A DNA stretch of 64,000 nt from an uncultured virus (IMG/VR IMGVR_UViG_3300027828_000003) (Duplodnaviria > Heunggongvirae > Uroviricota > Caudoviricetes): IMG/VR virus record IMGVR_UViG_3300027828_000003. One strand, written 5' to 3'. A program made the position numbers and the translations under genes. The notes beneath the pieces were generated by a model, which did not search any database, was not told where the DNA came from, and worked only from the letters and a program-made list of their open reading frames with translations. Positions 19,016-62,395 of this stretch are shown piece by piece (the stretch's first letter is position 1; every line of letters begins with the position of its first letter).

Positions 19016-19091
19016 GCGCCCGTAGCTCAGCTGGTAGAGCATTCGACTTTTAATCGACAGGTCCCAGGTTCGAATCCTGGCGGGCGCACCA
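19016..19091 (+). tRNA. tRNA-Lys(UUU)
   Basis: Cloverleaf: GCGCCCG/CGGGCGC acceptor, TAGCTCAGCTGGTAGAGC D-arm, CTTTTAA loop, GGTTCGAATCC, encoded CCA. Confidence 0.95.
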
Positions 19092-42130: not shown

Positions 42131-42208
42131 AGAATATCATCTGATTTATGAGTGTCAATCATATTTATGTGTACTTCTCATTGACTTTGCCAGCCAGACA
42201 ATCATAAT
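42131..42208. promoter_or_regulatory. Divergent sigma70-like promoters with two operator-like palindromes
   Basis: Minus TTGACA-N16-TATTCT; plus TTGACT-N16-CATAAT; ATGAGTGTCAATCAT (42148) and ATGTGTACTTCTCAT (42167). Confidence 0.6.
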
Positions 42209-42344
42209 CGGCAAATCGGCACGCACACCGATTCCTACCCAAACCACTTCCCAAGGCCGGGCCTGAAATATGGTCCGGCCAATTTTTCTTGACCCTATGA
42301 ACGCCGTCGATAATGATTTTTCCTCATTATCCATGAGGGAACGA

Positions 42345-42923: not shown

Positions 42924-42925
42924 GG

Positions 42926-43558
42926 ATGAAGAAACTGAACCGATTTTCGTCGACTCTGAATAAGAATAAGAAAAAGGCCAACAACCACCCTGCAGCCGAG
43001 AAGGCCAAGGCACAGATCCGCCAGAACGTCCTGGACGTTATCGGCGCCGACGATGCTTCCGTCTTCGACGCTTTCGCCGGCGAGGGCGTCATGCATACCG
43101 CGGTCTGGCATGCCGCAAAGAGCTATATCGGCTGCGATCTGGTCTGGTACCGAGACACGCGAACCGCCTTCGTCTGCGACAACACCCGCGTCTTGCGAGC
43201 GGTCGACCTTCAGCAGTTCAACATCTTCGATTTCGATGCTTACGGGTCGCCATGGGAACAGGCGTTCATCCTCGCTTCGAGGCGTGAGGTCAAACCGGGC
43301 GAACGCATCGGTCTGATTCTCACAGAGGGAAGCGGACTCAATCTGAAGCTGGGGGGATTGCCGATCGCCCTCCGCAAGCTGGCTGGCGTGCGGAAGACCT
43401 TCGCCGGGGGGAACCGGCATCATGACGACCTGATCGACATGGCATTGGCCGGCGTGTGCCGGCGCATGAACGTCAAGATCGTGAAGCGGTGGCGGGCGGT
43501 CCGCAAAGGCGGCGCTGCCATGCGCTATATCGGCGTTGTGTTGGAAGGAATCTCCTGA
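42926..43558 (+). CDS. SAM-dependent methyltransferase-like protein
   Basis: VFDAFAGEG motif I; FDFDAYGSPW. Confidence 0.55.
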   Translation: MKKLNRFSSTLNKNKKKANNHPAAEKAKAQIRQNVLDVIGADDASVFDAFAGEGVMHTAVWHAAKSYIGCDLVWYRDTRTAFVCDNTRVLRAVDLQQFNIFDFDAYGSPWEQAFILASRREVKPGERIGLILTEGSGLNLKLGGLPIALRKLAGVRKTFAGGNRHHDDLIDMALAGVCRRMNVKIVKRWRAVRKGGAAMRYIGVVLEGIS

Positions 43559-43624
43559 GCCGCAGGCGCCGCCCAGATCGAAACCTGGACGGCTCCCCTG
43601 CAACGGAGATCTGACTTGGCGGCT

Positions 43625-43683
43625 GCCTCATCAGGCCACGGGTACCACCCGTGACGACCAGCCCGAAAAGGGCTGGTTTCGGC
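43625..43683 (-). ncRNA. Hammerhead ribozyme, type II; predicted cleavage 3' of C at 43656
   Basis: GCC-GAAA-CCAGCCC UUUUC GGGCUGG-UC-GUCACGGG UGGUA CCCGUGGC-CUGAUGA-GGC. Confidence 0.8.
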
Positions 43684-43702
43684 TTGTTCCGGCCGATGCC
43701 GG

Positions 43703-43885
43703 TCAGTCCTGGCTCATCCTGGCCTTGAATGACCGGATGGTCATGGTTTCGACTTCACCTTTCGGGTCCGTCGGATAGAACTCACCGTGGATGCAGTCTT
43801 TCGCGAAAGCCACGGCTTCCGAACGTGTACAGGGTTTGTCCGTCTTGAGGACGATGCAGATTTCATGGCGTCTGCTTTTGGCCAT
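43703..43885 (-). CDS. Hypothetical protein
   Basis: AAGGAG RBS; last gene of leftward operon. Confidence 0.5.
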   Translation of the reverse strand: MAKSRRHEICIVLKTDKPCTRSEAVAFAKDCIHGEFYPTDPKGEVETMTIRSFKARMSQD

Positions 43886-44129
43886 GGGTTTCTCCTTTCT
43901 CGCTGAAGAGCGGTAAATCCAGACCCTGTCTCTCCGAAGGCAGCGGCCGCTCATCCGGACGGCAGATATTCCAGGGACATTCCTTGAAGTGCCCTTCGTC
44001 GTAAGCCTGCAAAATCCGGGGTTTGTGGTAGGTGCATTCGTGGCCGGACGGCCGCCGGCAGTGACTACCGACTTTCGCTTTGCACTCCGAACACGGGACT
44101 TCCAACGCGGGATGGCGCCGCCAAGTCAT
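43863..44129 (-). CDS. Zn-finger domain protein
   Basis: AL.V.C..C.A..G..C.RPSG...H..R. Confidence 0.55.
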   Translation of the reverse strand: MTWRRHPALEVPCSECKAKVGSHCRRPSGHECTYHKPRILQAYDEGHFKECPWNICRPDERPLPSERQGLDLPLFSEKGETHGQKQTP

Positions 44130-44155
44130 GCCGCACCCTTTGTTGCACCCGACCG

Positions 44156-44575
44156 TCATAACAGACCGATCCGGTTGTCGGGCCCGGTCCATTCCATCAA
44201 GGCAACGCCCTTCAGGAATTCATGGTCCACGATGTCCGACTCCAACACCGACTTGGCGCGGTGCAGAGCCTGATGGTCGATATCGCCGCCGCGGCGGGCG
44301 ACAATCTCGATCATCATTCCATCGTAGTCGTCGGAGAACCGGAACACGCCCGGCCAACAGTCGAAGTGGATGTCCGGCGTTGCGCCGGCGCCGCCCCAGT
44401 TCTCCCAATCTCCATCGGGATTCTTGATGAGGTCCGGATAGCCGTACATGCCATGCGGCGCCAACCGGTCCTTGACCCAGAGCCATGCCGCATGTTGCCG
44501 TTCACGCAGCTTCGCCTCGATCAAATCCGGATGGGATTGGCTCCCGACTTCCGTATCAAACAGACTTTGCTGCAT
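44156..44575 (-). CDS. Hypothetical protein
   Basis: GGAGG RBS before ATG. Confidence 0.5.
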   Translation of the reverse strand: MQQSLFDTEVGSQSHPDLIEAKLRERQHAAWLWVKDRLAPHGMYGYPDLIKNPDGDWENWGGAGATPDIHFDCWPGVFRFSDDYDGMMIEIVARRGGDIDHQALHRAKSVLESDIVDHEFLKGVALMEWTGPDNRIGLL

Positions 44576-44891
44576 GGCTGCCTCCCATTGGTCGATGGTC
44601 GAAAAGCGGCAGGCCATCCCCCAATTCGGGTTTGGTCTCGTAACGCCGGATTCCTTCCTCGGTCACATAGTAATCACCGGCCGGGCCTGGTCCTTTCAGG
44701 CTGCCGTTTCCCATCAGGACTTCGAAAGCCGCATAAATGCGCGTCCTCTTCCAGCCATAGGGATCGGCACCCGGCCGTCCACCCATCTGGTGTTGAATGG
44801 CGAACATAGACATGGCGCCTATACCAGACGGGCTCCACCGACGGATACGCGCAAAAAGCACGGCATCGTCCGGTTTCTTTTCGTCTTTCAT
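44556..44891 (-). CDS. Hypothetical protein
   Basis: Starts after shared CUGCAACAUGGAGG motif. Confidence 0.55.
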   Translation of the reverse strand: MKDEKKPDDAVLFARIRRWSPSGIGAMSMFAIQHQMGGRPGADPYGWKRTRIYAAFEVLMGNGSLKGPGPAGDYYVTEEGIRRYETKPELGDGLPLFDHRPMGGSHAAKSV

Positions 44892-44917
44892 TTCTACCTC
44901 CATGTTGCAGTGTGGTT

Positions 44918-44979
44918 TCCCACTACCGACCCCGCAGGGCCGGTTTCGACCAGTCACCAACTGGTCTCGTCAGGCAGGA
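44918..44979 (-). ncRNA. Hammerhead ribozyme, type I (GUA triplet, cleavage after 44924)
   Basis: UCCUGC-CUGACGA-GACCAG UUGGUGA CUGGUC-GAAA-CCGGCCC UGCG GGGUCGG-UA-GUGGGA. Confidence 0.9.
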
Positions 44980-47048
44980 TTTCTTGATTGGCTTACCGAT
45001 AGCGCGGTGGCGATCGGCTGCACCCAGATCGGTTCGTTCGACAGCGAAAAGGTCTGTCCGCTCCATGCCATCAGCAAGGTGCGTCCCATGGTCGAGGCGA
45101 TGGCCTGCGCTGCGGGCGGCGGGACCGCGTTTCCGATCCGTTCCCGCCATGCCGAGTCCGAAAGCCCCTCGAGCTCCATATGCTCTTCGGGACAAACGAG
45201 CCCTTGTAAAGCGGCCAACTCCAAGGTCGTGAACGGGCGATGCCACGTATTGTCGAGGGAGTGGATCACCACCACCAACCGGTCTTCCGGCGCCGGCAGT
45301 TGACAAATCGGGTCGATATTCGGATCCGGTTGCACACGCGGGTCCGCAACCGACCATCGCCCGTTGTCATGCTGAGCCGCCGCCGAGACCGCGCCGGCCG
45401 AGTCCCACCACGGGACAACACCGTAGTGCCCGCCCGATTGGTAGTGTTCCCGGCCGTCCTTGGTGAATTCAGGCCGGGGATCGGCAACGGAGAAGGCCCC
45501 GTTCCCGGTTCCGCTGGCCCCGATGACGGTGCCTGCCTGTCCATCCCAGTCGACGACACGATACTTGCCTTTCCCCTGGTAGGACGAATCCGGCCGCGGA
45601 TCGGCCACGCTCAACGCACCGGATGCAACCTGTTGGGCGCCAGTGATGGTGTAGGCCGGGTCTCCCCAGTCCGTGACCTTCAACTTGGCGCTCGATGCAC
45701 CTGGATGCCAATTGTTGTAGCGAGGATCGGCCACCGAGAACTTTCCGTTCGTCGGGAAGCTTTCCCCCGCGACAGTACCGGCCTGCTCGTTCCAGTCCGT
45801 GACGCCCATATGGCCATTGAAATGACCGCCACGGGGATCGGCCACGGACATTGCGGCGCCACCGACATGCTTCGCGCCGGTGACGACATGGGCGCTCCGG
45901 TCCCATCGCACGACACGATAGAACCCGTTGTGCCGGTTCTTCGATGGAGGCATGCGCGGATCGGCCACCGAATGGGGCCCACCACCGACCAACATCTTGC
46001 CGGTGACGACACCCGTCGATTGATCCCATTTCCGAACGCCATGCTGAACCGATCGAGGATGACCGTCGATGCGCGGGTCCGCCACGCTGTAACAGCCGTT
46101 CGTCGGCGTGCTGCGACCCTTCACCGTCACCGCCGGGCTGCCCCATGGAGTGACCCCCATGACGCCCTGGTGATAGCTTTGGTCGGGCATGATCCCGAAA
46201 TCCTTGAGAAAGCCGTCTTCAACATTCAGACGTTTCAAGGATCGCCAATCGCTACCGGCCTCGATGAAGGCCAGCCGAACCCAGGTTTTCCATTGAAGCG
46301 ACGGGATGCGATGCATGGGCCCCGCGGCCGCGACATCGCCGGGCAACGGGAAGCGTTCCAAGACCTCCCCTACCCCTTTCAAAGGCCTATGCATAGGCTC
46401 ATAGAGGAAGGGCGGAATCTTCTCCGCGTGCCGTGCCACGAGCAGGAAACGCTTCCGGCTCTGGGCCAAGCCGCCGAGATGGCCGCAATCGTGCGTCGTC
46501 TCCGCGACCAGATAGCCGTAATGCGCCAGGAGCGCGACAATCCGGTCGAGAAGCTTCCGACCGCGGTTCATGATGCGGGGAACGTTCTCAAACACGATCA
46601 GTTCCGGCGGATCATCCTGCCAGGCCTCGAGCATGAGCCAGACCCCGCGAAGGGTAAGGCTGTTCAACGCCTGATACTTGTCGCCCTTGCTGGCCGCTTC
46701 GGGCAACAAGCCCGAGAAGCCTTTGCAGGGAGCGGACAGGAACACGATATGCGGACGTTCGCCGCCCGCCGCGCGCTGGATGTCTGCCGCCGTGGCTTCG
46801 GTCCACCCATAAGGCGGCTCCTTGCCATGAAACGCCATGTACTGCTGGCGATTGAACAGGTCCAAGACCGTTCCTTTCACGCCGGCCAGCTGATCGAAAT
46901 CAGCAATGGCGCCTTGGTCGACATCGATTCCACCGATGCATTTGAACTTCGCGTTCAGGCTACCAACGCGGGCTTCGCCTTTGTTGAAGCCTTTCGCGCC
47001 GCCACCCAATCCGCAGAATAGGTGGAAGTGCCTAATCTCTACATCCAT
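44970..47048 (-). CDS. DNA (cytosine-5) methyltransferase with internal repeats
   Basis: HLFCGLGG, APCKGFS, ENV, Q.R.R, IGNAVP; seven SVADPR repeats; start moved to ATG after shared RBS. Confidence 0.9.
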   Translation of the reverse strand: MDVEIRHFHLFCGLGGGAKGFNKGEARVGSLNAKFKCIGGIDVDQGAIADFDQLAGVKGTVLDLFNRQQYMAFHGKEPPYGWTEATAADIQRAAGGERPHIVFLSAPCKGFSGLLPEAASKGDKYQALNSLTLRGVWLMLEAWQDDPPELIVFENVPRIMNRGRKLLDRIVALLAHYGYLVAETTHDCGHLGGLAQSRKRFLLVARHAEKIPPFLYEPMHRPLKGVGEVLERFPLPGDVAAAGPMHRIPSLQWKTWVRLAFIEAGSDWRSLKRLNVEDGFLKDFGIMPDQSYHQGVMGVTPWGSPAVTVKGRSTPTNGCYSVADPRIDGHPRSVQHGVRKWDQSTGVVTGKMLVGGGPHSVADPRMPPSKNRHNGFYRVVRWDRSAHVVTGAKHVGGAAMSVADPRGGHFNGHMGVTDWNEQAGTVAGESFPTNGKFSVADPRYNNWHPGASSAKLKVTDWGDPAYTITGAQQVASGALSVADPRPDSSYQGKGKYRVVDWDGQAGTVIGASGTGNGAFSVADPRPEFTKDGREHYQSGGHYGVVPWWDSAGAVSAAAQHDNGRWSVADPRVQPDPNIDPICQLPAPEDRLVVVIHSLDNTWHRPFTTLELAALQGLVCPEEHMELEGLSDSAWRERIGNAVPPPAAQAIASTMGRTLLMAWSGQTFSLSNEPIWVQPIATALSVSQSRNPA

Positions 47049-47081
47049 AACAGTTTCTCCTTGTTGCAGTTTGCGGGACAT

Positions 47082-47143
47082 CCCGCGACCGGGCGCCGAA
47101 GCACCCGGTTTCGGCTGTGTGTCAAACAGCCTCATCAGGCGGG
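47082..47143 (-). ncRNA. Hammerhead ribozyme, type I (GUC, cleavage after 47087)
   Basis: CCCGC-CUGAUGA-GGCUGU UUGACAC ACAGCC-GAAA-CCGGGUGC UUCG GCGCCCGG-UC-GCGGG. Confidence 0.92.
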
Positions 47144-47183
47144 TAATGAGTTTTACTCATTCTCACAGGTAAAAAAACACCGA

Positions 47184-48659
47184 TCATCTGTATGGAAAGG
47201 ATTTGTCCTTGTTCAGGCAGACGATCACCGTGTTGACGTTCGTGCCAACAGGCAGAAACGAGCCCGGCGGGAGATCATCCATCCGGGCCTTGTATTCATC
47301 CAGCAGCTTCCGGAAGGCCACGCTCTTCTTCGTCATCCTGAATTCCGTTCCGGCGCTCATGATCGAGATCAGATAGCCGTTCGGATTCAGGAATTTCATC
47401 GCGTGCAAGACGTGGTCAATGTCCCGTTCGAGGTCGAACGGTGGATTCATCACGACCCGGTCGTAGATCGGCTTTGGCTCGACATCCAGGAAATCACCGC
47501 AAGTCACCTTGCGGAACTTCCCGGATGCATCGAGTTCGGCCGCCAAATCTGTCTGGATTTCGACACAATCGACAACACCGCCATTCTCGACCGCTCTATA
47601 GGCCAAGCTGCCGTTACCGGCGGACGGTTCTAGAACGAGCAAAGGTCTTCGGTCTTCAGTAGGACGCCAAATCTTCGCTTGCCTCATGACGATCTCCGCG
47701 GCGTCCTCCGGCGTCGGGTAGAAGCCCCACCCTTTCGCCGGCGTGCGCTTGACCTTGAAGAGGCTGTCTTCCTCTTCCGCGGCCTTGCGGTACTTTTCGC
47801 TGCGCTCTTCGGGAATCACGTCGCCGTAGTATTCCGCCAAGAGCTTGTTGACCCGTTCAACCAGGTCGTCGCGCTGGAACCAGACGTGACAGTTTCCGTT
47901 CTTGAAAATACGGATCTTGAAATACTCTGAATCGACTTCGGTTTGACGGGGTGAAAGAGAATGACCGTCATTCCTTCGCGCTGTCTCTATGGCGTTTAGG
48001 AGTTGGCTATAAGCCGGGTTGTCCCGTTCGTCGTCGAGAACACGAAAAGTTCGCTCGATGTCGATCAGCGTGTCACGCATGTTGCTGTAATGGTTCCAAG
48101 TGCCCCACTCATCGAAACACCGGTCCAGGATCACACGGTTGCCGATTTTCCAACCGTCGTGGCTTCTGAACCGTCGATCCAGCTTGGAAAAGCAAGTGGC
48201 GATTCCGCGCTTGAAGATCGTGTCACGGTCCAGGAACAGCTGCTCTATGGTGGCAATGACGTTTTCTTCAGTGATGTCGGGTGGATCATCCACCAACTGC
48301 CTCCGAAGATCGTCCTTCGCCGTTTTGTCCATCAGCTGCTCAAGAGCCGTGATTTCGATGATCCTGGACCAGCAGTCGGAGTCGACCGCGCGCCGAACCG
48401 TCGTTTCAAAGAATTCACGCGACGGAACATTGAAGTCCGTCAGGTGGCATTTCTGAAGATGTTTCGACGAACCGTAATTGAAGCCGGTCGTGCCGGCCGC
48501 CATACGGGTTTTGGTCTTGTGCGCTTCATCGATCGCCTGCCGAGCCGATTCCAAGGCGTCATAGGCGCAACCGTAGAGACGGAGCGCCTCGTCCCTGTAC
48601 CGGACCAGTTCGGCGACAGTGATGCGAAGTGCTGGAAGTTGACCGTCAGGCATGACCAT
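47184..48659 (-). CDS. DUF4942 domain + amino-methyltransferase
   Basis: YF..R.FKNGN.H..F.R.DLV...N; FYPTP, LEPSAG.G, MNPPF. Confidence 0.85.
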   Translation of the reverse strand: MVMPDGQLPALRITVAELVRYRDEALRLYGCAYDALESARQAIDEAHKTKTRMAAGTTGFNYGSSKHLQKCHLTDFNVPSREFFETTVRRAVDSDCWSRIIEITALEQLMDKTAKDDLRRQLVDDPPDITEENVIATIEQLFLDRDTIFKRGIATCFSKLDRRFRSHDGWKIGNRVILDRCFDEWGTWNHYSNMRDTLIDIERTFRVLDDERDNPAYSQLLNAIETARRNDGHSLSPRQTEVDSEYFKIRIFKNGNCHVWFQRDDLVERVNKLLAEYYGDVIPEERSEKYRKAAEEEDSLFKVKRTPAKGWGFYPTPEDAAEIVMRQAKIWRPTEDRRPLLVLEPSAGNGSLAYRAVENGGVVDCVEIQTDLAAELDASGKFRKVTCGDFLDVEPKPIYDRVVMNPPFDLERDIDHVLHAMKFLNPNGYLISIMSAGTEFRMTKKSVAFRKLLDEYKARMDDLPPGSFLPVGTNVNTVIVCLNKDKSFPYR

Positions 48660-48727
48660 GGCCCCCTTCCCGCTTTTTCAAGTGTTTCATCGTAGTTCTC
48701 CATGTTGCAGTTGTGGGGTAGTGACTT

Positions 48728-48785
48728 CCCACGACCGCCCCAAAAGGGCGGTTTCGGCCCGTGTCACGGGGCCTCGTCAGGTGGG
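48728..48785 (-). ncRNA. Hammerhead ribozyme, type I (GUC, cleavage after 48733)
   Basis: CCCAC-CUGACGA-GGCCC CGUGACAC GGGCC-GAAA-CCGCCC UUUUG GGGCGG-UC-GUGGG. Confidence 0.92.
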
Positions 48786-49454
48786 TTTGAGATCGAACGG
48801 TGGCGGCGTTTGGGAGATTTTGTGAATCCAGCCGCCGGGTTGCCAGTCCGGATCGTCTTTTGGCGCTTCCGGCATGATCAACTCCGCTTCCTCGCCGGAA
48901 TGCCTCTTGTACCCGAGCGGGACAGTTCCGTCTTTTCGGTCAAGCTGGATCGTCTTCACGACCTGATCGACCAGACCTGTCTTCTCGGCAAATGATCCGA
49001 AGAAATTCGCATAGGAGCGATAACCGGTCGGCGATATGAAAGGACGGTCGAAGTCGACCGCATGGGCGCTGAACCCCAAACCGAACAAACCCCGATAGTC
49101 GATCAACACACGGCATTCGAGGACATTCACAATGAACCGTCCCGGCTGACCGAACATTGGCACTTCGCCGCCACTGGATTGAATGGCGTCGATAATGCGA
49201 CCGTAGGCACCTTCCTTCGTGGCGATTGCGAAAATGGTGCCGTCATTCATGCGAACAGCCAGGTTTCGAACCTGTTCCAAGATCGCCACACCGGTCTCGC
49301 CGTCCCCATTGAGGACCGCTTGATCGTAACGGACAAGTTCGTCCCAGATCGCGGCGATCAGGTCGTCCTCATCCGTCGGTAGAGCGTCCAAGGCAGCGCG
49401 TTGCGCCCGTTCTGCGTCAGTGGGAAGGTCCATTCCCAAAGCAAGCTGTGTCAT
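48777..49454 (-). CDS. KlcB-like protein
   Basis: GEVPMFGQ.G.F..., HAVDFDRPFIS.TGYRS resembles IncP KlcB (recognised by eye). Confidence 0.6.
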   Translation of the reverse strand: MTQLALGMDLPTDAERAQRAALDALPTDEDDLIAAIWDELVRYDQAVLNGDGETGVAILEQVRNLAVRMNDGTIFAIATKEGAYGRIIDAIQSSGGEVPMFGQPGRFIVNVLECRVLIDYRGLFGLGFSAHAVDFDRPFISPTGYRSYANFFGSFAEKTGLVDQVVKTIQLDRKDGTVPLGYKRHSGEEAELIMPEAPKDDPDWQPGGWIHKISQTPPPFDLKPT

Positions 49455-49488
49455 ATTGGTCTCCGTGTTGCAGTTACGGTATCGGCTA

Positions 49489-49558
49489 CCGCGACGGCCA
49501 ACTTAACGCATGACGTTAAGTTGACCGTTTCGGCCCCGCCACGGGCCTCGTCAGGCGG
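49489..49558 (-). ncRNA. Hammerhead ribozyme, type I (GUC, cleavage after 49493)
   Basis: CCGC-CUGACGA-GGCCC GUGGCG GGGCC-GAAA-long stem III-UC-GCGG. Confidence 0.92.
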
Positions 49559-50369
49559 ATCCATGGTGTTGCGGAACCCGAAGCGGATTCGGGTATCCTT
49601 CCGGCAGGAACGGCTGAAGGTCTTTCTTGATGTAGTGCCGTGCCCCAAGCTCCTGCAGGAGCTCGATCATCCGGTGGGTATAGTCTTCCCAGTCGGTCGT
49701 TTTCGTCATGGACAGGTAGTTCACCCGCCCGACCTTGTAGAGATCGACGAATTCATGGGTTTCGCGAACGATTTCCATGCTGCTTTCGACATCCAGGGTC
49801 GGCTCGAGGCTGACCCAGGTGAAGATGCCGGCCGCATGAAAGGCCTTGATCGCTTCAATCCGATCTGCCGGCGCCGCGGCGTCGCGTTCCCATTTCCGGG
49901 AAAATCCTTCGTCGAGGCTGGTCAGTGTCGAGGCAAAAGCATCACGATCGCGTCGAAACAGGTCGATATCCCGCAACGCCCTGGTTCCACCCTTGGTCAA
50001 GGTGCAGAAGCCCAGACCATGATCCCGCAGGACGATCAGGGTTTCCCGGGTCAGCGAATTGTCGCCCGGGTGATACGGATCGGTCGTGAACGAGAGCATG
50101 ACCTGGCCCGTCAATCCGGCCGCCCTGTACTTCTTGGCGTCCTTGACGAGGTTGGCCATGTAGTTCTTGCGCGGCACCGCGCCGGCATCGAACTCTTTCC
50201 GGTCCTGCTTGGTGACGCGCGGCACATAGCAATAGGCGCATTTGTGCCCGCAGCCGCGATATGGGTTTGCGGCCAGTGGCGCATATTCTCCGGCCTGACC
50301 TTTCGGCGCGTAGATATGCGTGCATCCCTTCAGCGAAAGGCCATCGGGATTGATTGTTGGTGTATGCAT
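49551..50369 (-). CDS. Radical SAM protein (SPL-like)
   Basis: NPYRGCGHKCAYCY CxxxCxxC; TDPY; LTK; WVSLEP. Confidence 0.85.
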   Translation of the reverse strand: MHTPTINPDGLSLKGCTHIYAPKGQAGEYAPLAANPYRGCGHKCAYCYVPRVTKQDRKEFDAGAVPRKNYMANLVKDAKKYRAAGLTGQVMLSFTTDPYHPGDNSLTRETLIVLRDHGLGFCTLTKGGTRALRDIDLFRRDRDAFASTLTSLDEGFSRKWERDAAAPADRIEAIKAFHAAGIFTWVSLEPTLDVESSMEIVRETHEFVDLYKVGRVNYLSMTKTTDWEDYTHRMIELLQELGARHYIKKDLQPFLPEGYPNPLRVPQHHGSA

Positions 50370-50390
50370 TCAAATTCTCCATGTTGCACG

Positions 50391-50419
50391 ATAGTATGAG
50401 TTTAACTCATTATTGCGAA
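50391..50419 (-). promoter_or_regulatory. Putative promoter with operator ATGAGTTTAACTCAT (50396-50410)
   Basis: TTCGCA-N17-TACTAT on minus strand. Confidence 0.5.
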
Positions 50420-50637
50420 GATGCCAAAACATATGTAACTGCCTGCATCTTCACGATTTTCTTGGATAAACGATATGTCTACTTATAGCCCTATTGAATA
50501 CCTATTTAGAGAGCCTTCCTATTGACTATTCGGGCGACTTCCCCAATTAAGAAACATCCATGTTGCAGTGGATTTCACCGACCTTGATCGGTGCATCTAC
50601 ACCCGAGCCGGATCACTCCGCGCTCGGGTGTTGTGCA

Positions 50638-50943
50638 TCAGGACATCAGGTTGTCGAAATAGGCCTTCGCCGACTCGTAGTCGCGATATTGCCGACCGTG
50701 CTGCGCGCCACCCATTTCGAAGTGGACCGCATAATGGCCGTTCGTCCATCGCATCATCGAGCCGGCAGCATGCCAACCGGCAGTCACGGCCTTCAACTGA
50801 ACCTCTCGGCCGCCGAGCGCCTTTCTGGTTTCCAAAACGGTGATCTCCGGCCGCGGTTCAAGCCTGCTATTCGGCTCTTCAAGCAAGCACTTCCCTGCCG
50901 GGATGTACTTATCTCGAAAATGGACATTCGGGATTTCAAGCAT
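50638..50943 (-). CDS. Hypothetical protein
   Basis: Starts after shared RBS motif. Confidence 0.6.
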   Translation of the reverse strand: MLEIPNVHFRDKYIPAGKCLLEEPNSRLEPRPEITVLETRKALGGREVQLKAVTAGWHAAGSMMRWTNGHYAVHFEMGGAQHGRQYRDYESAKAYFDNLMS

Positions 50944-50969
50944 ATCGGTTCTCCATGTTGCAGTTGCGG

Positions 50970-51035
50970 TTTCCCACGACCGACCCCGCAGGGCCGGTTT
51001 CGGCCAGTCACCAACTGGCCTCGTCAGGCAGGAAA
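50970..51035 (-). ncRNA. Hammerhead ribozyme, type I (GUC, cleavage after 50978)
   Basis: UUUCCUGC-CUGACGA-GGCCAG UUGGUGA CUGGCC-GAAA-CCGGCCC UGCG GGGUCGG-UC-GUGGGAAA. Confidence 0.92.
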
Positions 51036-51452
51036 GTAGTCACAGGCGATCTGCTCGTCGGTGATCTCGAGTTCGAAGGTCGAACCCGGTTTGAGCTTTT
51101 CGGGCAGTTCGTCCAAATGGAAGACTTCGACGAAATCGTCGCCGCCGACCGCATCCCGGCTCCGTTCCCAGAACCCTGGATCATCAGGCGAATATCCGAG
51201 CGCGTAGACGACCTTCTTCTTGCCCGGCCGGTCCGGATCGAGCATGGCCGGGAAGCCATTCGATACCAAGTAGATGCCGTCGTCTTTGACGATCAACAAA
51301 CCCGGCTGTCCCAGTTTTTCCTCGCCGTCCTGGGGATCAATACTCCCGGTCAGGTCGAGACGTTCGCCGAAAGTCAGGCTATGTTCGTTCGAAGCGCGTG
51401 CATGCACCATCAACAAATTGACCGAGTCGGCAGGGAAACGAAGTTTCGTCAT
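51024..51452 (-). CDS. DUF3085-like protein
   Basis: L.VKDDGIYL.SNG, VYA.G..P, GGDDFVE. Confidence 0.7.
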   Translation of the reverse strand: MTKLRFPADSVNLLMVHARASNEHSLTFGERLDLTGSIDPQDGEEKLGQPGLLIVKDDGIYLVSNGFPAMLDPDRPGKKKVVYALGYSPDDPGFWERSRDAVGGDDFVEVFHLDELPEKLKPGSTFELEITDEQIACDYFPA

Positions 51453-51958
51453 TTCCTGTCCTCCTCGATCGACTGTTGGACGCCCGGCAGACGATAGATG
51501 TTCTCCGGATCCGTGTCCGACGCGTTGAAGTAGTCGATCTGCGCCTTGACCTCTTTGATGTCATCAGCCTCGTCCTCCTGCCACCGATAGCTATACCGGC
51601 GTTCCGTATCACCCTTCTCGGGCGGCACGAGGTAGACCGAAAATCCACCATACTTGAAGGCTTCGACCTCGCCGGCCGGCCGCCGCATGCTCGACATCAC
51701 GATCTCCGCGGCGCGTTTTTGACCGATCAGGAGAATGTCCCGGTTCAGTTCGTCCGCGTGCTGCGCCATCTCGTCGTAGCTATCGCCGTTGCACCAGAAC
51801 ACCGGTACAGGGTGGTAACCTGGCTCGTTCTCGACAGCGATACCGAGGCCGAACCCTTCAGATTTGGCAACCACTGGGACAAACGCCCAGTTCTTGCCGT
51901 CGACGACCGTAAAAAGGTCACATTCGGCCATGCCTTCCGTTGTCAATTGTTTCAGCAT
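51449..51958 (-). CDS. Hypothetical protein
   Basis: Starts after shared RBS motif; GIAVENEPGY. Confidence 0.6.
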   Translation of the reverse strand: MLKQLTTEGMAECDLFTVVDGKNWAFVPVVAKSEGFGLGIAVENEPGYHPVPVFWCNGDSYDEMAQHADELNRDILLIGQKRAAEIVMSSMRRPAGEVEAFKYGGFSVYLVPPEKGDTERRYSYRWQEDEADDIKEVKAQIDYFNASDTDPENIYRLPGVQQSIEEDRK

Positions 51959-51993
51959 TTCAGCTTCTCCATGTTGCAGTTACGGTAATGCAT

Positions 51994-52064
51994 ACCGCGA
52001 CCATCACCCCCGGCTGGCGCCGGGGGCTAGGTTTCGCCGGGATTGCACCGGCTCGTCAGGCGGC
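51994..52064 (-). ncRNA. Hammerhead ribozyme, type I (GUC, cleavage after 51999)
   Basis: GCCGC-CUGACGA-GCCGG UGCAAUC CCGGC-GAAA-CC..GCCCCCGGC GCCA GCCGGGGGU..GG-UC-GCGGU. Confidence 0.9.
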
Positions 52065-52469
52065 TTCTGCTTCTTCGGGCTGATGACCCTGCATGATGAT
52101 GTTCTGCAGCCATTGGGCCAGGAAATCGTTCTGGCCCTTCTTTTCCTTCGGATAGACCTTGCCCGGTTCGGGGTAGACCTCCCGGAAGGAGCTCAGGTAG
52201 TCCTGCTGAATGTGAAGGGCTTCCGCCATCTTCAGCTTCGGGACGACCGCGACCAGCATTTCGGGATCCGCCATGAGATCGCCGTTTTGCAGCCCATAGT
52301 GCGCCAGGGAGACCTTGACCCGGTCCTTCTCGCGCTCGACGACCTCGACGCACAGATCCATGAATCCGGACGCCTTCAACTTGGTGTGGAAGCCGACCTC
52401 ACGGTCCTCGATCCCCGGAATGATTTTCGTCAAACGGGCGTAGATCGTCTTGTAGATTTTGTGTTCCAT
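52056..52469 (-). CDS. DUF1249/DUF6908-like protein
   Basis: GFMDL.VE, SLAHY..QNGDLMADPEM, FL..WL.NI..QG. Confidence 0.7.
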   Translation of the reverse strand: MEHKIYKTIYARLTKIIPGIEDREVGFHTKLKASGFMDLCVEVVEREKDRVKVSLAHYGLQNGDLMADPEMLVAVVPKLKMAEALHIQQDYLSSFREVYPEPGKVYPKEKKGQNDFLAQWLQNIIMQGHQPEEAEAA

Positions 52470-52505
52470 CTCGAAATTCTCCATGTTGCAGTTACGGTAT
52501 TGGCT

Positions 52506-52562
52506 ACCGCGACCGGTCCCGAAGAACCGGTTTCGGCCCCGCCACGGGCCTCGTCAGGCGGC
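52506..52562 (-). ncRNA. Hammerhead ribozyme, type I (GUC, cleavage after 52511)
   Basis: GCCGC-CUGACGA-GGCCC GUGGCG GGGCC-GAAA-CCGGUUC UUCG GGACCGG-UC-GCGGU. Confidence 0.93.
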
Positions 52563-53027
52563 GTTCAATTCGCGATTGACGCGCGATCTGAAATCAATAA
52601 GAGCGGGCGCATATGCCTCGTGATAGTGCCCATGGTACCGGCCACCATCCTCGAGGTTCTGCCACCATGTCGCGTAGGGATGGCGCACGTTGTCGATGCA
52701 GCAGAGCAGAAAACGACCGGGGGCCGTCATTTGACCGTCTGGTGACGGGTGTTCCGCTACAATGAAGCCGGTCGACCCGGCGCCCTTGACCCCCTCGATA
52801 ATCGAGCCAGGGAACACGTATTTCGTCCGCTCCTGGATTTGAGCTTCGGAAACGCTGCCGACCTTTTCGAAGTCAATGCCCTTGTGGATGCACCACAGTT
52901 CGGCGATTTCCTCGACTTGGGTCTGATTTTCGCCCTCGATGTGCTTATGCAGCCAATTCGTGAAGCCGACCCCTGGCCCGCCGTGAACGGTCTCGGCCAG
53001 CTTGATCGACGCAAAATAGATCGTCAT
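52554..53027 (-). CDS. Hypothetical protein
   Basis: Starts after shared RBS; HPYATW....G...GHY. Confidence 0.6.
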   Translation of the reverse strand: MTIYFASIKLAETVHGGPGVGFTNWLHKHIEGENQTQVEEIAELWCIHKGIDFEKVGSVSEAQIQERTKYVFPGSIIEGVKGAGSTGFIVAEHPSPDGQMTAPGRFLLCCIDNVRHPYATWWQNLEDGGRYHGHYHEAYAPALIDFRSRVNRELNAA

Positions 53028-53058
53028 TAGATTCTCCCATGTTGCAGTTTGCGGACAT

Positions 53059-53127
53059 ACCGCGACCAGCCGTCGCACAACTTGCGACAACTGGTTTCGC
53101 CGGGATTGCACCGGCTCATCAGGCGGC
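53059..53127 (-). ncRNA. Hammerhead ribozyme, type I (GUC, cleavage after 53064)
   Basis: GCCGC-CUGAUGA-GCCGG UGCAAUC CCGGC-GAAA-CCAGUUGUCGCA AGUUG UGCGACGGCUGG-UC-GCGGU. Confidence 0.92.
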
Positions 53128-53601
53128 TTGATTGACCTGGCGCGGGTCGTTCCAGACCTGGGCGCCGGCGTCGACGTAAAGGCCGACGTAATGGTCAAGG
53201 GGACAGTGAGAAAACCCGTTGTAGGGTGGTGCGTCGGGTGTCACGCCTGTGATGAAAGACGGGCCGGAAATGACCAGATCGATCAGCTTTTCATGCGGTA
53301 TTTGACGCATATCGACCACAGGGACACCTAGACCTTTCAGAATGCTGGCGTAGGGCTCGCCCTCGCCATATCCTTCCAGTCGGCATCCTGAAACGCGCGT
53401 ATTGGCGTCTTCATAGTGGACTGTCCAGCCACCGTGGCCGATGGTCATCAAGACCGCCCGACGGATGGTCGCCAAACTCGACTTGATCGAAAAACGCTCC
53501 TTTGTCCGCGCCTCGATGTGTTTTCCGTTTTCCCGCAATTCCATGTGATACCACCAAGTTTTGGCATGGTGATTCAACTTTTTGTAAATGACGGTTCTCA
53601 T
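53119..53601 (-). CDS. Hypothetical protein
   Basis: Starts after shared RBS motif. Confidence 0.6.
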   Translation of the reverse strand: MRTVIYKKLNHHAKTWWYHMELRENGKHIEARTKERFSIKSSLATIRRAVLMTIGHGGWTVHYEDANTRVSGCRLEGYGEGEPYASILKGLGVPVVDMRQIPHEKLIDLVISGPSFITGVTPDAPPYNGFSHCPLDHYVGLYVDAGAQVWNDPRQVNQAA

Positions 53602-53646
53602 CGTGGACTCCGTGTTGCAGATGGCGAAATTGCCTAACGAATTCAG

Positions 53647-53687
53647 GAGAAAAGGCCGGGGGCGAGCGATGAATAAGCCCGCCCCCG
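53647..53687 (-). terminator. Putative intrinsic terminator after clamp-like gene
   Basis: CGGGGGCGGGC UUAUUCAUC GCUCGCCCCCG then GCCUUUUCUC. Confidence 0.5.
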
Positions 53688-53707
53688 ATTGATTGACCTA
53701 GTGAAGT

Positions 53708-54943
53708 TTAAGCGGCGATTGCTTCCGCCTGTTCGGCCGCCTTGGCTGCCTTACGGCCCCGATTGTTCCGGCCTTTGGTGGCCTTGGGGGCCTTCGTGGT
53801 CTCGGCCTTGGCAGCTGCCGGCGCCGTTTCGGGCTCCGGCTTGGCTTCCGGTTCCGCCTTGGGCTCGGGTTGCGGTTCCTGTTCCGGTTCCGCCGGTTCC
53901 GTGGTTTCTGGTTCGGACGTTTCCGGCTCCGTGGTTTCGGGTTCCGTTTCCGTCGTTTCCTCGCCAAGTTCCATCCCGAGCGGCTGCCCGTCGATCGCCT
54001 CGTCGCCACCCTGTTCGGGCGCGGGCAAGGCTTTCTCGCTCGTGCGAGCCATCAAGGCTTCAATCCGTTCCCGGTATTCGTCGGCCTTCGCGGAAAGCTT
54101 GGCCTTCTCAAGCGGGTCCGTCGTTTCGTCCGCCCATGCCTGATTGCGCGTTTGATGCGCCTTCAGAGCGGCGAGCGTCCGATTGACGGCCGGACTGATA
54201 AGACGTGCCGTCTCCGGCGCGATGCTTTGCTTGACCCTGACGGGCATCAGAATAAGCATCGCCCCCGGATATTCCGGAAACGTCGCCATGGCCGCTTCCG
54301 TCGCGGAATGGGCGTACAGGCTCACGTTTCCGTCCTTCCCGCCCAAGAGCTTCGCGATATCGCCAACGGATTTGAGATATTTTCCGTTGAACGACACCGG
54401 TTCGAAGTCCTTAGCGCGGGCGTCGTCTTTGTCCGTCACCCCGCCGGTCAGACTTTCCATGATCATTTGGTAATCAGGAAACGTGCCGGACACGATCGGG
54501 CACTTGATGCGCGCGTCTTGCTTGGCGTCCGTGAGGTACGCGCTCGACGCGTTCACCGCGTTCTCGATCTTGATCAGCTCATCCTCGCCGAGCTTCTGCA
54601 AAAGCTTCAGCTTGGGAGCGAGATTTTCGCTGTGCAGGATCGCGCCTTGTTCCAGCCATGCCGGGGCTTGCCCGACAAGCGGCTGAGTGGCGATGAACAA
54701 ACGGTGACCATCCGTGGCCACGGCCCGGATCCTGTCCTCGACGACATGGAAAAAGATTCCGTTGAGATAGTAGCGGGTCTCTTCCGTGCTGGCGCACGCC
54801 AAAGCGGCATGCATCAGGGTCGCCGGAAACAGGATCGATTCGGAGGCTCCGACCTCGACGGCCTGGGCGTTGTCGTCCTGGCGCGCGTTGTTCTCGGCTT
54901 CCGTGGTCTGTTCCGTGGTGGTGACGTGGTTTTGGTCAGTCAT
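53708..54943 (-). CDS. DNA polymerase III beta-clamp-like protein with acidic/Pro-rich tail
   Basis: EETRYYLNGI, AVATDGHRL, GTFPDY, FNGKYL, LMPVR. Confidence 0.75.
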   Translation of the reverse strand: MTDQNHVTTTEQTTEAENNARQDDNAQAVEVGASESILFPATLMHAALACASTEETRYYLNGIFFHVVEDRIRAVATDGHRLFIATQPLVGQAPAWLEQGAILHSENLAPKLKLLQKLGEDELIKIENAVNASSAYLTDAKQDARIKCPIVSGTFPDYQMIMESLTGGVTDKDDARAKDFEPVSFNGKYLKSVGDIAKLLGGKDGNVSLYAHSATEAAMATFPEYPGAMLILMPVRVKQSIAPETARLISPAVNRTLAALKAHQTRNQAWADETTDPLEKAKLSAKADEYRERIEALMARTSEKALPAPEQGGDEAIDGQPLGMELGEETTETEPETTEPETSEPETTEPAEPEQEPQPEPKAEPEAKPEPETAPAAAKAETTKAPKATKGRNNRGRKAAKAAEQAEAIAA

Positions 54944-54965
54944 TGGATTTTCTCCGTGTTGCAGT

Positions 54966-55335
54966 GTGACCGGCGGCGGATGCGCTGCCGGGGCCTAGTT
55001 TGAAAATGGCCTAAGCGGGCGCACCCTCGCGGGCGCGCCCAATGGAGAATCTGCAATGTGGAGAATGTCGTTATTCACAATGTCCGAGAACGGGACGAAA
55101 GCGGGCGGCGGCTGCCTGTCGCGTTGTGGAATGCCGGATAAACGGACTGGATACCGCCGCACCGGTCACTGCCTTCCCAGCCGATCCCGTAGGACCGTGC
55201 CACGTTCCGAAAGCCTTGACGCGAAGGCCTAGCCCAAAGGGCCAGAGCCGATCCCGATTCACGATGTCCAATAACCAGACCCGAGGGGCCTGACGGCGCT
55301 CTGACCGCCGCGCACGGCGCAGGCATTGCCCTAAC
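54966..55335 (-). ncRNA. Long structured 5' leader/putative sRNA containing antisense copy of the shared RBS motif
   Basis: About 370 nt with no credible ORF; several hairpins; AUUCUCCACAUUGCAG at 55066-55051. Confidence 0.55.
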
Positions 55336-55339
55336 CGAT

Positions 55340-55373
55340 ATGAGATAGTCTCATATTATGGGGTATAGTTCAA
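55340..55373 (-). promoter_or_regulatory. Promoter for the ribozyme-punctuated operon with overlapping operator
   Basis: TTGAAC-N17-(TGn)GACTAT; ATGAGATAGTCTCAT at 55340-55354. Confidence 0.6.
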
Positions 55374-55530
55374 GGCTTTTTATCGCAAACTCATATGGTT
55401 ATGGTTGGGCATTAATGAGCCGGTTTAAGGGCCGTTGGTGGCTGTAGGGGTATGTGAGGGGTAGACGTAGGGGTATGAGGTTGCGCGAATGTGGGGGCGT
55501 TAGAGAGGCTGTAGACCTGGCTTTGTATGA

Positions 55531-55801
55531 GGCAGGGAGAGAGAGCCGTAGGGGCTGGGCTGGGTGTAGGGACAGGGAGAGAGAGCCGTAGGGGCTGGGC
55601 CGGGTGTAGGGACAGGGAGAGAAGGCCGTAGGGGCTGGGCTGGGTGTAGGGACAGGGAGAGAGAGCCGTAGGGGCTGGGCTGGGTGTAGGGACAGGGAGA
55701 GAGAGCCGTAGGGGCTGGGCCGGGTGTAGGGACAGGGAGAGAGAGCCGTAGGGGCTGGGCCGGGTGTAGGGACAGGGAGAGAAGGCCGTAGGGGCTGGGC
55801 T
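55531..55801. repeat. Tandem array of 40-bp G-rich unit, about 6.8 copies
   Basis: GACAGGGAGAGA(GA/AG)GCCGTAGGGGCTGGGC(T/C)GGGTGTAGG at 40-nt period. Confidence 0.97.
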
Positions 55802-55835
55802 GATGGTGCCCGATGTGTTGGGGCTTGAGGTAGGG

Positions 55836-55869
55836 CAAAAGAAAAGGGCCCGCGCAGCGGCGGGCCCTT
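55836..55869 (-). terminator. Intrinsic terminator
   Basis: AAGGGCCCGC..GCGGGCCC UUUUCUUUUG. Confidence 0.8.
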
Positions 55870-55892
55870 GGTGGTGTAGGTGACGGCGCTTG

Positions 55893-56129
55893 TTAGGCGG
55901 CGGCTTCCAGGGTGCCCCCGGTCTCGAGCGTTTCAAGTTTCGCATAGAGCGGATTCAATTGCTTGGTCACAAGGCCCTTATCGTAGCCGGTCAAGGCGTC
56001 GCGGGTGCGTTCCAGCCGGGTGATGCGGGCCTTGGTGGCGGCGATCTGGTGGCCGATGGTGCCCTTGGTGGCGGCCGCCTTGGCGCCGGCGTTCAAACGG
56101 GTCTGGCTGTCGATGTTCACGTTACGCAT
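55893..56129 (-). CDS. Small hypothetical protein (early)
   Basis: Own promoter, shared RBS motif and terminator. Confidence 0.65.
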   Translation of the reverse strand: MRNVNIDSQTRLNAGAKAAATKGTIGHQIAATKARITRLERTRDALTGYDKGLVTKQLNPLYAKLETLETGGTLEAAA

Positions 56130-56185
56130 GGTTCAATCTCCTGTTGCAGTGTCCGGCGGGGACCGTCCCCGTCGTCGATGGTTAG

Positions 56186-56214
56186 AATATAGGGTGTGAT
56201 ATGAATTTTGTCAA
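56186..56214 (-). promoter_or_regulatory. Near-consensus sigma70 promoter
   Basis: TTGACA-N17-TATATT. Confidence 0.75.
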
Positions 56215-56960
56215 TATTATCAGCAATCTAGCGGCCATCCTGCATCCGTTGTAAACCGGGCGATCTGGCGCGGCGCGAAATTTTTTTGAAAAAAAATGCA
56301 CGGGCTGGTTGCGGTTTTTGTGGGGCGAAGGCCGGGGGCGATCGTATGGGGCGCGTATATATAAGGGCTATGTGTAGGCCTATGGATAGGGCTGATGTTA
56401 TGGGCGCCGGGTGTATGGGTAGCGGTATGCCTAGTCGGGCTGTAGGGCTTCCAGGGTTGCGCCTGGCTGAGGGGCGAGGAAACGGACCGGCGAAAATCTC
56501 AAGGCGCTATGCGCGCGGCGGGCGGCGGGCCTGTGTGGGTTTAGGTTGTGATCCATGGGCGATCCATGCCCAGCTGGCACGTAGGCGGCTGCGCACCCAC
56601 GGCCCGAGCGAACGGCGCAATAAACTATCAGCTTTTTATAAATATTATTTCAATTGGAGAGTATTAAATATGAATCCAGTTTAAGAAAGAGTGACACCCT
56701 ACCCCCCTTCCCTGTCAAGAGACCGCGACCAAATCTCACAGCTCTTTGCTCTACCCAGGTCCAAACCGAGAGATAGTCGGCGACACCACAACTAGGTGTG
56801 ACGACTTGAACGACTTGAAACGACTTGCAGATCGCCACTATTGCCTCGGTTATGAGAAAGATACATAAATAGCGACTTGTTTATGGCGGCGTAATGAGAG
56901 GGACTCATGTCTCTCTCGCTGGACCGGAGGAACGGCACGCGCGTGGGAAAGGGTCAGCCG

Positions 56961-57572
56961 GTGGCTGAGAACTCAGACAGCCCTATGGAAGGCAAACTGG
57001 TATGCGGAGCGAAGACCAGGAGCGGCGGCACCTGTCAGAAACCGCCTATCAAGGGGAAAAAGCGGTGTCGTCTTCATGGCGGCGCCAGCAACAACCCTGC
57101 GCCGAAGGGCAACACCCGCGCTCTCAAGCACGGCCTCTACAGCTCGGTCATATCCGACGAGGAAAAGCGGCTTTGGGAACACATCGAGCTCGGCACGATC
57201 GACGACGAGCTTCGACTGGCTCGGGTCAAGCTACGACGCCTGTTGGCCTTCGAGAACGCCCAGAACACGCCCCAGGACGCCGGTGGGGCGACGAATTCGT
57301 CTCGAAAAGGCATGACGCTCGAGGAAGTCCGCGTCTTGACCGACGGCCGCAGCCGGCAAACCGAGATGGTTCAACGCCGAGTCGATTACACACCAGAGAT
57401 CCGCGGCTTACTCAAAACGATCGGCGATCTCGAGAAAACGCGCGCGGCAATCGGAACCGGAGCGGACGACCCGGAAACGATGGCCAGAAAGGTCCAGGAC
57501 GCATTGCACGCGATTCATCTGATCCAGGAAGGAATACCGGTTGGACCCGATGAGGCATATGAGGCCGCTTGA
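56961..57572 (+). CDS. Terminase small subunit-like protein (HGGxSTG domain); start uncertain
   Basis: CGAKTRSG..C.......RC.LHGG, GN..ALKHGLYS; directly upstream of TerL. Confidence 0.75.
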   Translation: MAENSDSPMEGKLVCGAKTRSGGTCQKPPIKGKKRCRLHGGASNNPAPKGNTRALKHGLYSSVISDEEKRLWEHIELGTIDDELRLARVKLRRLLAFENAQNTPQDAGGATNSSRKGMTLEEVRVLTDGRSRQTEMVQRRVDYTPEIRGLLKTIGDLEKTRAAIGTGADDPETMARKVQDALHAIHLIQEGIPVGPDEAYEAA

Positions 57573-62318: not shown

Positions 62319-62395
62319 AGCGGGTTGGCGCAGTCTGGTAGCGCGGTTGGCTCATTACCAACAGGACGTCGGTTCGAATCCGACACCCGCCCCCA
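62319..62395 (+). tRNA. tRNA with CAU anticodon (Met/fMet-like, atypical)
   Basis: GCGGGT/ACCCGC acceptor with 1:72 mismatch, GCGC D-stem, GTTGG CTCATTA CCAAC, GGTTCGAATCC, CCA. Confidence 0.85.

Follow-up and report, generated by a model that had tools for sequence, protein, structure and literature searches.

An antisense copy of a shared ribosome-site box in the boxA-like leader of a phage operon with predicted hammerhead ribozymes

Introduction

The C4 RNAs of phages P1 and P7 and the CI RNA of P4 are antisense elements located in the leader of the operon they control. They are complementary to repeated downstream sites, including a ribosome-binding site, and are processed to stable small RNAs by RNase P. 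Clusters of hammerhead ribozymes in phage operons have been known since 2011, to our knowledge without an assigned job. Such clusters occur in prophage operons, where long transcripts were suggested to be processed to gene-length mRNAs (Perreault et al. 2011, PMC3088659, available text). In Nus-type antitermination, boxA is the loading site for NusB/NusE, and rrn operons carry leader and spacer copies of it (PMC10250234 and PMC5725501, in the portions available). In rrn operons boxC follows boxA by 18–19 nt, and boxA-NusB is thought to anchor it for pairing with the trailer (PMC10250234, same portion). Nus complexes at boxA also act from a leader site to repress suhB and lambda N translation, and lambda ties the translation of its first cistron to the antitermination complex (excerpts of PMC5725501, citing Wilson et al. 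1997, 2002).

The locus described here lies in a 64,000-nt stretch of phage DNA (the window). A long minus-strand operon carries a common box in front of its genes, and the leader of that operon contains two boxA-like elements followed by a strand complementary to the box (the anti-box). This feature is real and conserved. By analogy, the layout resembles that of lambda nutL, structured leader and N start, in which translation is tied to antitermination and RNA processing. As in the lambda pL leader (nutL boxA-boxB, RNase III site, N), boxA is followed by structured RNA and the first start site, going by the excerpts cited above. Unlike nutL, the leader has two boxA-like copies, and neither a boxB-like hairpin with a conserved loop nor an N-like gene was found; the strand after boxA mirrors a motif that precedes 13 genes, and (predicted) hammerheads cut the operon. 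The likeness to the rrn boxA-boxC leader-trailer helix (rrnTAC) consists of a putative boxA in two copies, like the word upstream of 16S in one proteobacterial class, and of a strand just after boxA that pairs, here by prediction, with downstream sequence (PMC10250234, in part). The differences are that the partner is an mRNA ribosome-binding site rather than the rRNA trailer, the helix is short (6 + 8 bp) and the window's boxA copies are degenerate. The Escherichia coli suhB 5′ UTR likewise has boxA near the SD and is repressed via a Nus complex (Baniulyte et al. 2017, PMC5725501, available part); that repression needs no anti-SD strand, whereas the phage leader has an explicit complementary strand. 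As in P1/P7 C4 and P4 CI, the anti-box is in the leader and is complementary to repeated sites (13 boxes) that include the ribosome-binding site, but there is no Rfam match and boxA flanks the element. For the hammerheads of PMC3088659, the available text describes no shared post-cleavage box, leader antisense copy or boxA, and "Shine" occurs in it 0 times. Literature on boxA with hammerheads, or on boxA in phages of Alphaproteobacteria, yielded no description of this layout.

Results

Terminase, portal, head-morphogenesis and scaffold genes occupy the plus strand from ~56900, and the long minus-strand operon extends from 54943 to ~43600. Its products include a β-clamp-like protein, several DUF proteins, a radical-SAM protein and DNA methyltransferases. 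A run search recovered the sequence in three DNA runs, from marine sediment metagenomes, and in 0 RNA runs. The nearest phage portals are 31–37% identical and belong to phages of Dinoroseobacter, Rhodobacter, Ruegeria, Citromicrobium and Paracoccus. Together with the cellular relatives of the clamp, from Novosphingobium, Hyphomicrobium and Mesorhizobium, they point to an alphaproteobacterium as the likely host. The operon promoter likely coincides with a palindrome and is absent from the promoter-scan listing; the same palindrome overlaps the −10 of a promoter that the tool did list, at 50427–50399. In the form ATGAGN5CTCAT, the palindrome has 15 sites in the window (≤1 mismatch), 8 of them exact, against 1.5 expected, and is probably the site of a phage-wide regulator. 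The features that delimit the operon are:

55338–55356, minus strand: palindrome ATATGAGACTATCTCATAT, covering the probable −10 of the operon promoter, whose −35 (TTGAAC) would be at 55368–55373
53708–54943, minus strand: first gene, β-clamp-like, 411 aa (PF02767 at 7e-11; homologues P0002–P0018)
43617–43684, minus strand: type II hammerhead at the far end of the operon (Rfam RF02276, Hammerhead_II, 52.6 bits against a gathering score of 37)

The palindrome is found, for example, at 26479, 29002, 33918, 47146, 50396, 55340, 56894 and 62297; among its sites are overlaps with −10 regions of promoters and with the beginning of the small terminase gene. It also accompanies internal promoters at 50399–50427 (minus strand) and 47146–47160; one starts its mRNA right at a box, the GTGCAAC variant, and the other is just 5′ of a hammerhead.

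The consensus box, CTGCAACATGGAGAAT, has 11 matches in the window at ≤3 mismatches against 0.31 expected, a count reached in 0 of 100 shuffles. Ten are on the minus strand before genes, and one is on the plus strand (55051–55066, 2 mismatches). A looser pattern returned one chance match within the gene at 45335 and 13 true minus-strand boxes, 4–8 nt 5′ of start codons, in agreement with the 13 motif sites of the preliminary description:

56134–56149, minus strand: box before a separate 78-aa gene with its own promoter and terminator (pattern match)
54949–54964, minus strand: box and SD of the first gene (CTGCAACACGGAGAAA), ATG at 54943; pairs with the anti-box in predicted folds
53605–53620, minus strand: box (pattern match)
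53032–53047, minus strand: box after a hammerhead
52476–52491, minus strand: box after a hammerhead, exact consensus
51964–51979, minus strand: box after a hammerhead
50948–50963, minus strand: box after a hammerhead
50553–50568, minus strand: box-like copy without a clear SD or start
50374–50389, minus strand: box at an internal promoter, GTGCAAC variant
49458–49473, minus strand: box after a hammerhead
48695–48710, minus strand: box after a hammerhead
47054–47069, minus strand: box after a hammerhead
44895–44910, minus strand: box after a hammerhead

Eight of these 13 boxes lie 12–21 nt 3′ of a canonical hammerhead core (CTGAnGAG..CGAAAC..GTC), with GUC or GUA at the cleavage site. When the metagenome record of the window's own contig (L236) was searched with the core pattern, all eight matches fell on the operon strand and none on the opposite strand. 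They have the core CUGANGA..GAAA..UH with three stems and are predicted ribozymes, known from sequence. The one hammerhead that Rfam detects is of type II and lies where the operon ends.

Type II hammerheads above the gathering score close the operon in three related phages (the window, L237 at 10282–10347 and L300 at 11259–11335), and the internal hammerheads, which Rfam misses, are open at stem I. At the 5′ ends of the released mRNAs, for example at 52492–52510 (minus strand), the 3′ strand of stem I can refold as a small 5′ hairpin; CGGUA-GCCAA-UACCG is one such case, just 5′ of the box and after the predicted cleavage site. Such a hairpin may protect the 5′ end or prevent religation.

The preliminary description had placed an antisense copy of the shared ribosome-binding-site motif at 55017–55066 in the leader, followed directly by a second anti-SD and a strong hairpin with a GCGA loop. 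Each of these elements is present. The anti-box ATTCTCCACATTGCAG, a 14/16 complement of the box, is read on the minus strand, and the second anti-SD and the hairpin follow at 55050–55017, with ATTCTCCATTGGG at 55050–55038. The leader itself is long, ORF-poor and on the minus strand. What that description had missed are the two boxA-like elements, which recast the leader, with its antisense strand, as a putative antitermination module. In the order of transcription, the leader contains:

55258–55275, minus strand: boxA-like 1 (GTTATTGGACATCGTGAA), 3 mismatches to GCTCTTTGACATYGTGAA; the homologous position is exact in L237 and L359
55074–55091, minus strand: boxA-like 2 (GTTCTCGGACATTGTGAA), 7 nt 5′ of the anti-box
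55051–55066, minus strand: anti-box ATTCTCCACATTGCAG, aligned with the anti-boxes of L300, L237 and L359
55038–55050, minus strand: second anti-SD ATTCTCCAT, inside the conserved UUCYCCAUUGGG; exact complement of AUGGAGAAU
55017–55040, minus strand: hairpin 1, GGGCGCGCCC-GCGA-GGGTGCGCCC, 10 pairs including one G-U, with a GNRA-type GCGA loop
54992–55013, minus strand: hairpin 2, UAGGCC..UAGGCC; GGCAA/UUGCC in relatives
54970–54991, minus strand: hairpin 3, helix 5 of the consensus fold

The anti-box is the sole inverted copy of the box in the 64 kb. Its duplex with the consensus box has a predicted energy of −20.1 kcal/mol, compared with −5.8 ± 2.1 kcal/mol for shuffled sequences (0 of 500 as low). 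In a three-sequence alignment (window, L300 and L237), 11 of the 12 columns of UUCYCCAUUGGG are invariant.

The anti-box is also like boxA-like 2 just upstream (TTCTCGGACATTGTGAA vs. TTCTCCACATTGCAGAT; TTCTC..ACATTG.., 55051–55091, minus strand), with 13 identities in 18 alignment columns and 2 gaps. Judged from this likeness, part of the anti-box may have arisen by local duplication.

Relatives were retrieved by scans with an alignment of 18 clamp homologues, which identified three distant phages with the same system: L300, L237 and L359, with clamps 45%, 46% and 32% identical, respectively, to that of the window (31–46% across these phages). Hammerheads occur in them on the operon strand only (three in L300, five in L237 and six in L359). 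A short fragment, L255, represents a fourth locus; two hammerheads and boxes are present in it, a leader is not. Other searches were less productive: a single-protein clamp search of viral contigs and a blastn search of the leader against phages gave no match; DNA-pattern scans for the box in viral and genome contigs, with or without the hammerhead, returned single chance matches and no locus with more than one box; and among 23 loci recovered from viral contigs with GCAGWTTCYCCATTGGG, one was a true relative, on the contig of L300. Boxes of the relatives read ATCTGCAA..GGAG in L300, YTGCAACATGGRAG in L237 and ACTGCACA..GGAGAG in L359. They are uniform inside one phage and differ across phages: CTGCAAC in the window and L237, ATCTGCAA in L300 and CTGCACA in L359.

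The order of the leader is kept in all four phages, and the segment keeps its position in each of the four leaders. An ATGA..TCAT palindrome at the likely −10 is followed by boxA-like 1, a GC-rich RNA of 170–290 nt, a degenerate second boxA copy, a gap of 3–7 nt, a CUCC...UGCAG strand mirroring the local box, and UUCYCCAUUGGG. Three hairpins and then the box, SD and AUG of the first gene complete the leader, which is ~390 nt in the window; L359 is the exception, with another structure and a hammerhead in place of the three hairpins. The anti-box starts 7 nt (window), 3 nt (L300), 4 nt (L237) or 6 nt (L359) past the second boxA-like 18-mer. In L359 it has a matching G (GTGCAG) for the CTGCACA box of that phage, and the L359 hammerhead separates it from the first box, so that predicted cleavage would release the leader as a separate RNA. 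The L300 anti-box contains a long internal spacer absent from the L300 boxes. The anti-box is not random, being the only inverted copy in the window and occupying the same place in the leaders of three relatives.

L300, L237 and L359 have a second boxA-like copy in the corresponding position, that of L237 being degenerate. In all four leaders both copies are on the operon strand, with the palindrome and promoter 5′ of them and the ATG 3′ of them, transcription start being placed from the putative promoter. Each window copy departs from the motif at 3 of its 18 positions, which in both copies fall in the U-rich half and leave GACATYGTGAA intact; none of the nine rRNA-leader copies of boxA has these changes. 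Since the window's own copies are degenerate, their assignment relies on homologous position with the exact copies of L237 and L359. The E. coli boxA word is TGCTCTTTAACAA. The word CTCTTT[GA]A[CA]A (≤1 mismatch) was found 128–284 nt upstream of 16S in 9 of 14 rRNA loci from one proteobacterial class; the 14 loci have full 16S genes and come from the class of the sole genome with the exact 18-mer. At three of these nine loci the word also occurs in the 16S-23S spacer, and the rRNA-locus motif often continues as TTGTGAAT, identical to the phage motif. This position upstream of 16S and the two-copy layout identify GCTCTTTGACATYGTGAA, by sequence comparison, as an rrn-type boxA, a putative NusB/NusE antitermination signal; the class compared may not be that of the host. 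The exact 18-mer occurs in 1 of 401 genomes sampled from one phylum, where it does not adjoin rRNA. The exact 17-mer is present in 60 viral contigs (L380–L439), most without hammerheads. Among 50 distinct phage contexts, an SD and start codon lie ≤200 nt 3′ of boxA in 31 (median 45 nt), and an anti-SD tetramer lies ≤25 nt 3′ of boxA in 11, which against a background of 14% is no clear enrichment.

Several of the viral contigs with boxA have a further hairpin motif, GAGCCGTGGGCCTTC, in common.

Folding predictions place the anti-box opposite the start of the first gene. In the RNAalifold consensus of the window, L300 and L237, the anti-box and first box form eight pairs, with 100% of cells paired, that enclose the three-hairpin domain; over the whole structure, 90.2% are paired compared with 82.0% when shuffled (0 of 500 as high). 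Compensatory pairs are found in hairpin 1 (helix 3; 3 of 9) and hairpin 3 (helix 5; 5 of 9), and on account of these the conserved object is an RNA read on the operon strand. The anti-box:box helix itself has no double change in its eight pairs across three leaders (five invariant, three one-sided); read by eye, the second anti-SD has one U-A to C-G change and L359 has one A-U to C-G change. The partner ~100 nt downstream of the anti-box is kept in three leaders.

Minimum free energy structures of single leaders contain 12 (window), 10 (L300), 15 (L237) and 13 (L359) pairs between the anti segment and the box/SD/AUG region of the first gene. The corresponding means for shuffled segments are 2.4, 1.4, 4.0 and 2.6, and the native count is reached by 2, 4, 2 and 10 of 100 shuffles. 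Forcing the segment to be single-stranded costs 9.4 kcal/mol in the window, 8.6 in L300 and 6.5 in L237. The register of pairing varies. The window and L359 use anti-box:box pairing, and L300 and L237 mostly place the second anti-SD and the 3′ half of the anti-box over SD and AUG. For L359 the probability of anti-box:first box pairing is 0.25 with the full leader and 0.61 with a short construct; it is 0.72 for the window, 0.17–0.25 for L300 and 0.0 for L237. The Y of UUCYCC tracks the SD of the first gene, being U with GGAGAA (window) and C with GGGAAU (L300) and GGGAGA (L237). The first box of the window reaches −16.7 kcal/mol with the anti-box, compared with values as low as −21.8 kcal/mol for other boxes. 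Pairing of the box with boxA itself was rejected as a candidate: the energies, −8.4, −3.9 and −6.4 kcal/mol, are all inside the shuffled range.

Discussion

Our preferred reading, to which we give about an even chance, is that the segment would serve in cis as an anti-SD strand, within a leader of the Nus antitermination type at the head of a ribozyme-cut phage operon. NusB/NusE would load at boxA, and RNA polymerase would thereby resist termination along the long transcript, which is untranslated and self-cleaving by prediction. As the 5′ strand of a leader helix, the anti-box together with the second anti-SD would pair in cis with the first gene's box, SD or AUG ~100 nt downstream; that helix would close the three-hairpin domain and mask the first ribosome-binding site. 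This reading is favored by an anti-box position just after boxA, where rrn operons have boxC, that distant phages conserve, by the likeness of the motif to boxA of rRNA leaders, by the consensus fold and the pairing predicted in four leaders, by the cost of holding the segment single-stranded and by the Y base that tracks the first SD. A strictly cis role is weakened by the lack of a compensatory double change, by a first box that is not the best partner and by the L359 hammerhead, which would separate the leader from its first box. Against the reading stand also the register, which shifts between phages, the mismatches in the window's own boxA copies and the lack of clear anti-SD enrichment after boxA in other phage contexts. 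A cis-only role also leaves unexplained the same box at 12 other genes, three of them without a hammerhead, and boxes that are uniform within each phage and different between phages argue for a phage-specific partner in trans, RNA or protein.

Such a partner could be the leader itself, or a processed piece of it, acting as a stable antisense RNA in trans as C4 and CI do, pairing with the 13 boxes and blocking the ribozyme-released mRNAs. This was the direction taken by the preliminary description, and we consider it unlikely. All 13 boxes are complementary to the anti-box (−14.1 to −21.8 kcal/mol); 12 of them are in the best 1% of 24-nt background windows from the locus, with the weakest at 1.5%. 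When leaders are folded without the first box, the anti-box is more accessible than average in three of four (probability unpaired 0.55, 0.48 and 0.64, against leader averages of 0.35–0.39), although in L359 it is less so (0.25 vs. 0.34). That phage also supplies a hammerhead between anti-box and first box whose predicted cleavage frees a leader RNA, and its matching G accords with the phage-specific box type. Thus the earlier claim of an antisense element in the leader of the controlled operon, complementary to repeated ribosome-binding sites, holds. The expectation that cognate pairs would be clearly better than noncognate ones does not: a cross-phage matrix has no consistent cognate preference, the L237 anti-box scoring −12.8 kcal/mol with its own boxes and −14.1 with those of the window, and the spacer within the L300 anti-box mismatches the L300 boxes. 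Nor did hybridization scans with the anti segment single out the boxes. In a scan with the 27-nt anti segment they made up ~13 of the top 30 minima, with non-box sites equally good, and a scan with 41 nt was dominated by GC-rich non-box sites. Membership of the C4/CI class is not supported. Using cmscan, no Rfam family, C4 included, matched 54900–55420 at E ≤ 10 apart from DUF3268 (13.4 bits, E = 7.1); 42000–57000 held no relevant Rfam match, and L300, L237 and L359 gave hammerheads only. The leader contains no tRNA-like element (ARAGORN) or processing signal that could be found and no canonical terminator after the hairpin, and there would be one leader per 13 targets unless the leader accumulates. 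The C4/CI analogy is thus a guide to how the segment might work, and pairing in cis with the first start region would, from the folds, be the simpler reading.

The segment could instead have a sequence-specific role without box pairing, as a nut-like protein site after boxA or a degenerate third boxA repeat, in which case its match to the box would be incidental. UUCYCCAUUGGG and parts of the anti-box are conserved beyond the need for pairing (11 of 12 columns invariant), the anti-box resembles boxA-like 2, and the anti-box:box helix is without compensatory change. We nevertheless regard this role as decidedly unlikely, because a 14/16 complementarity inside the leader is very improbable by chance, the partner ~100 nt away is kept in three leaders with start-region pairing predicted in four of four, and boxA itself does not pair with the box. 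On the plus strand, the segment could be a real box and ribosome site for a divergent 58-aa ORF at 55056–55232; the plus strand reads GGAGAATCTGCAATG, and GGAGAA is 6 nt 5′ of the ATG of the ORF, a correct SD-ATG spacing. This is highly improbable: the best tblastn E value against the leaders of L300, L237 and L359 was 0.3, with the shared DNA in different frames, the ORF has no Pfam or PHROG match, and boxA and the hairpins with compensatory changes read on the minus strand. The ORF was rejected as neither conserved across the leaders of relatives nor matched to a family.

A further reading, which we advance by analogy and hold to be very doubtful, is that the anti-box is a traveling capture strand, held at the RNA polymerase exit by boxA-NusB/NusE, as has been proposed for rrn boxC, and meeting each new box in turn. 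A box would be met as it emerges just after the hammerhead cut, and by pairing with it the strand would link the boxA leader again to the new 5′ end of every released mRNA. The antitermination complex would then stay tethered across self-cleavage, or ribosome sites would be masked for a short time until the ribozyme folds. If true, a capture strand would account for the same box at the start of every ribozyme-released segment, for an anti-box that adjoins boxA and for the L359 hammerhead before the first box.

One small module thus joins a host-type antitermination signal, a uniform post-cleavage ribosome-site box and a leader strand that mirrors the box. If the strand acts only in cis, the leader would be a new phage version of lambda N-leader logic, made of rrn parts; if it meets the other boxes too, a polymerase-bound leader RNA could control a repeatedly self-cutting transcript, and phage hammerheads would gain a regulatory setting. 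Being short, the element can be transferred to reporters in laboratory alphaproteobacteria.

Additional Observations

Upstream of the operon, a separate small transcription unit (55893–56214, minus strand) contains a box and the 78-aa gene. Of the sigma-70-like promoters in the region, its TTGACA-17-TATATT (11/12) is the best; a strong intrinsic terminator follows at 55869–55844. The 78-aa protein is helical and 57% identical to a protein at the same place in L300. It matched no known family and had no informative Atlas match; tblastn gave no match in phages and plasmids and, in viral contigs, retrieved only its own phage and L300. This protein could be a trans factor for the box.

Between the terminator of the small gene and the operon promoter is a tandem array (55533–55802) of 6.8 copies of a 40-nt unit with 95% matches. 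On the operon strand the array is rich in C and poor in G, and a C-rich stretch without repeats is found at this place in L300. The array could represent a Rho loading tract, a set of iterons or a packaging site. The plus strand also carries two phage tRNA genes, tRNA-Lys(UUU) and tRNA-Met(CAU), at 19016–19091 and 62319–62395.
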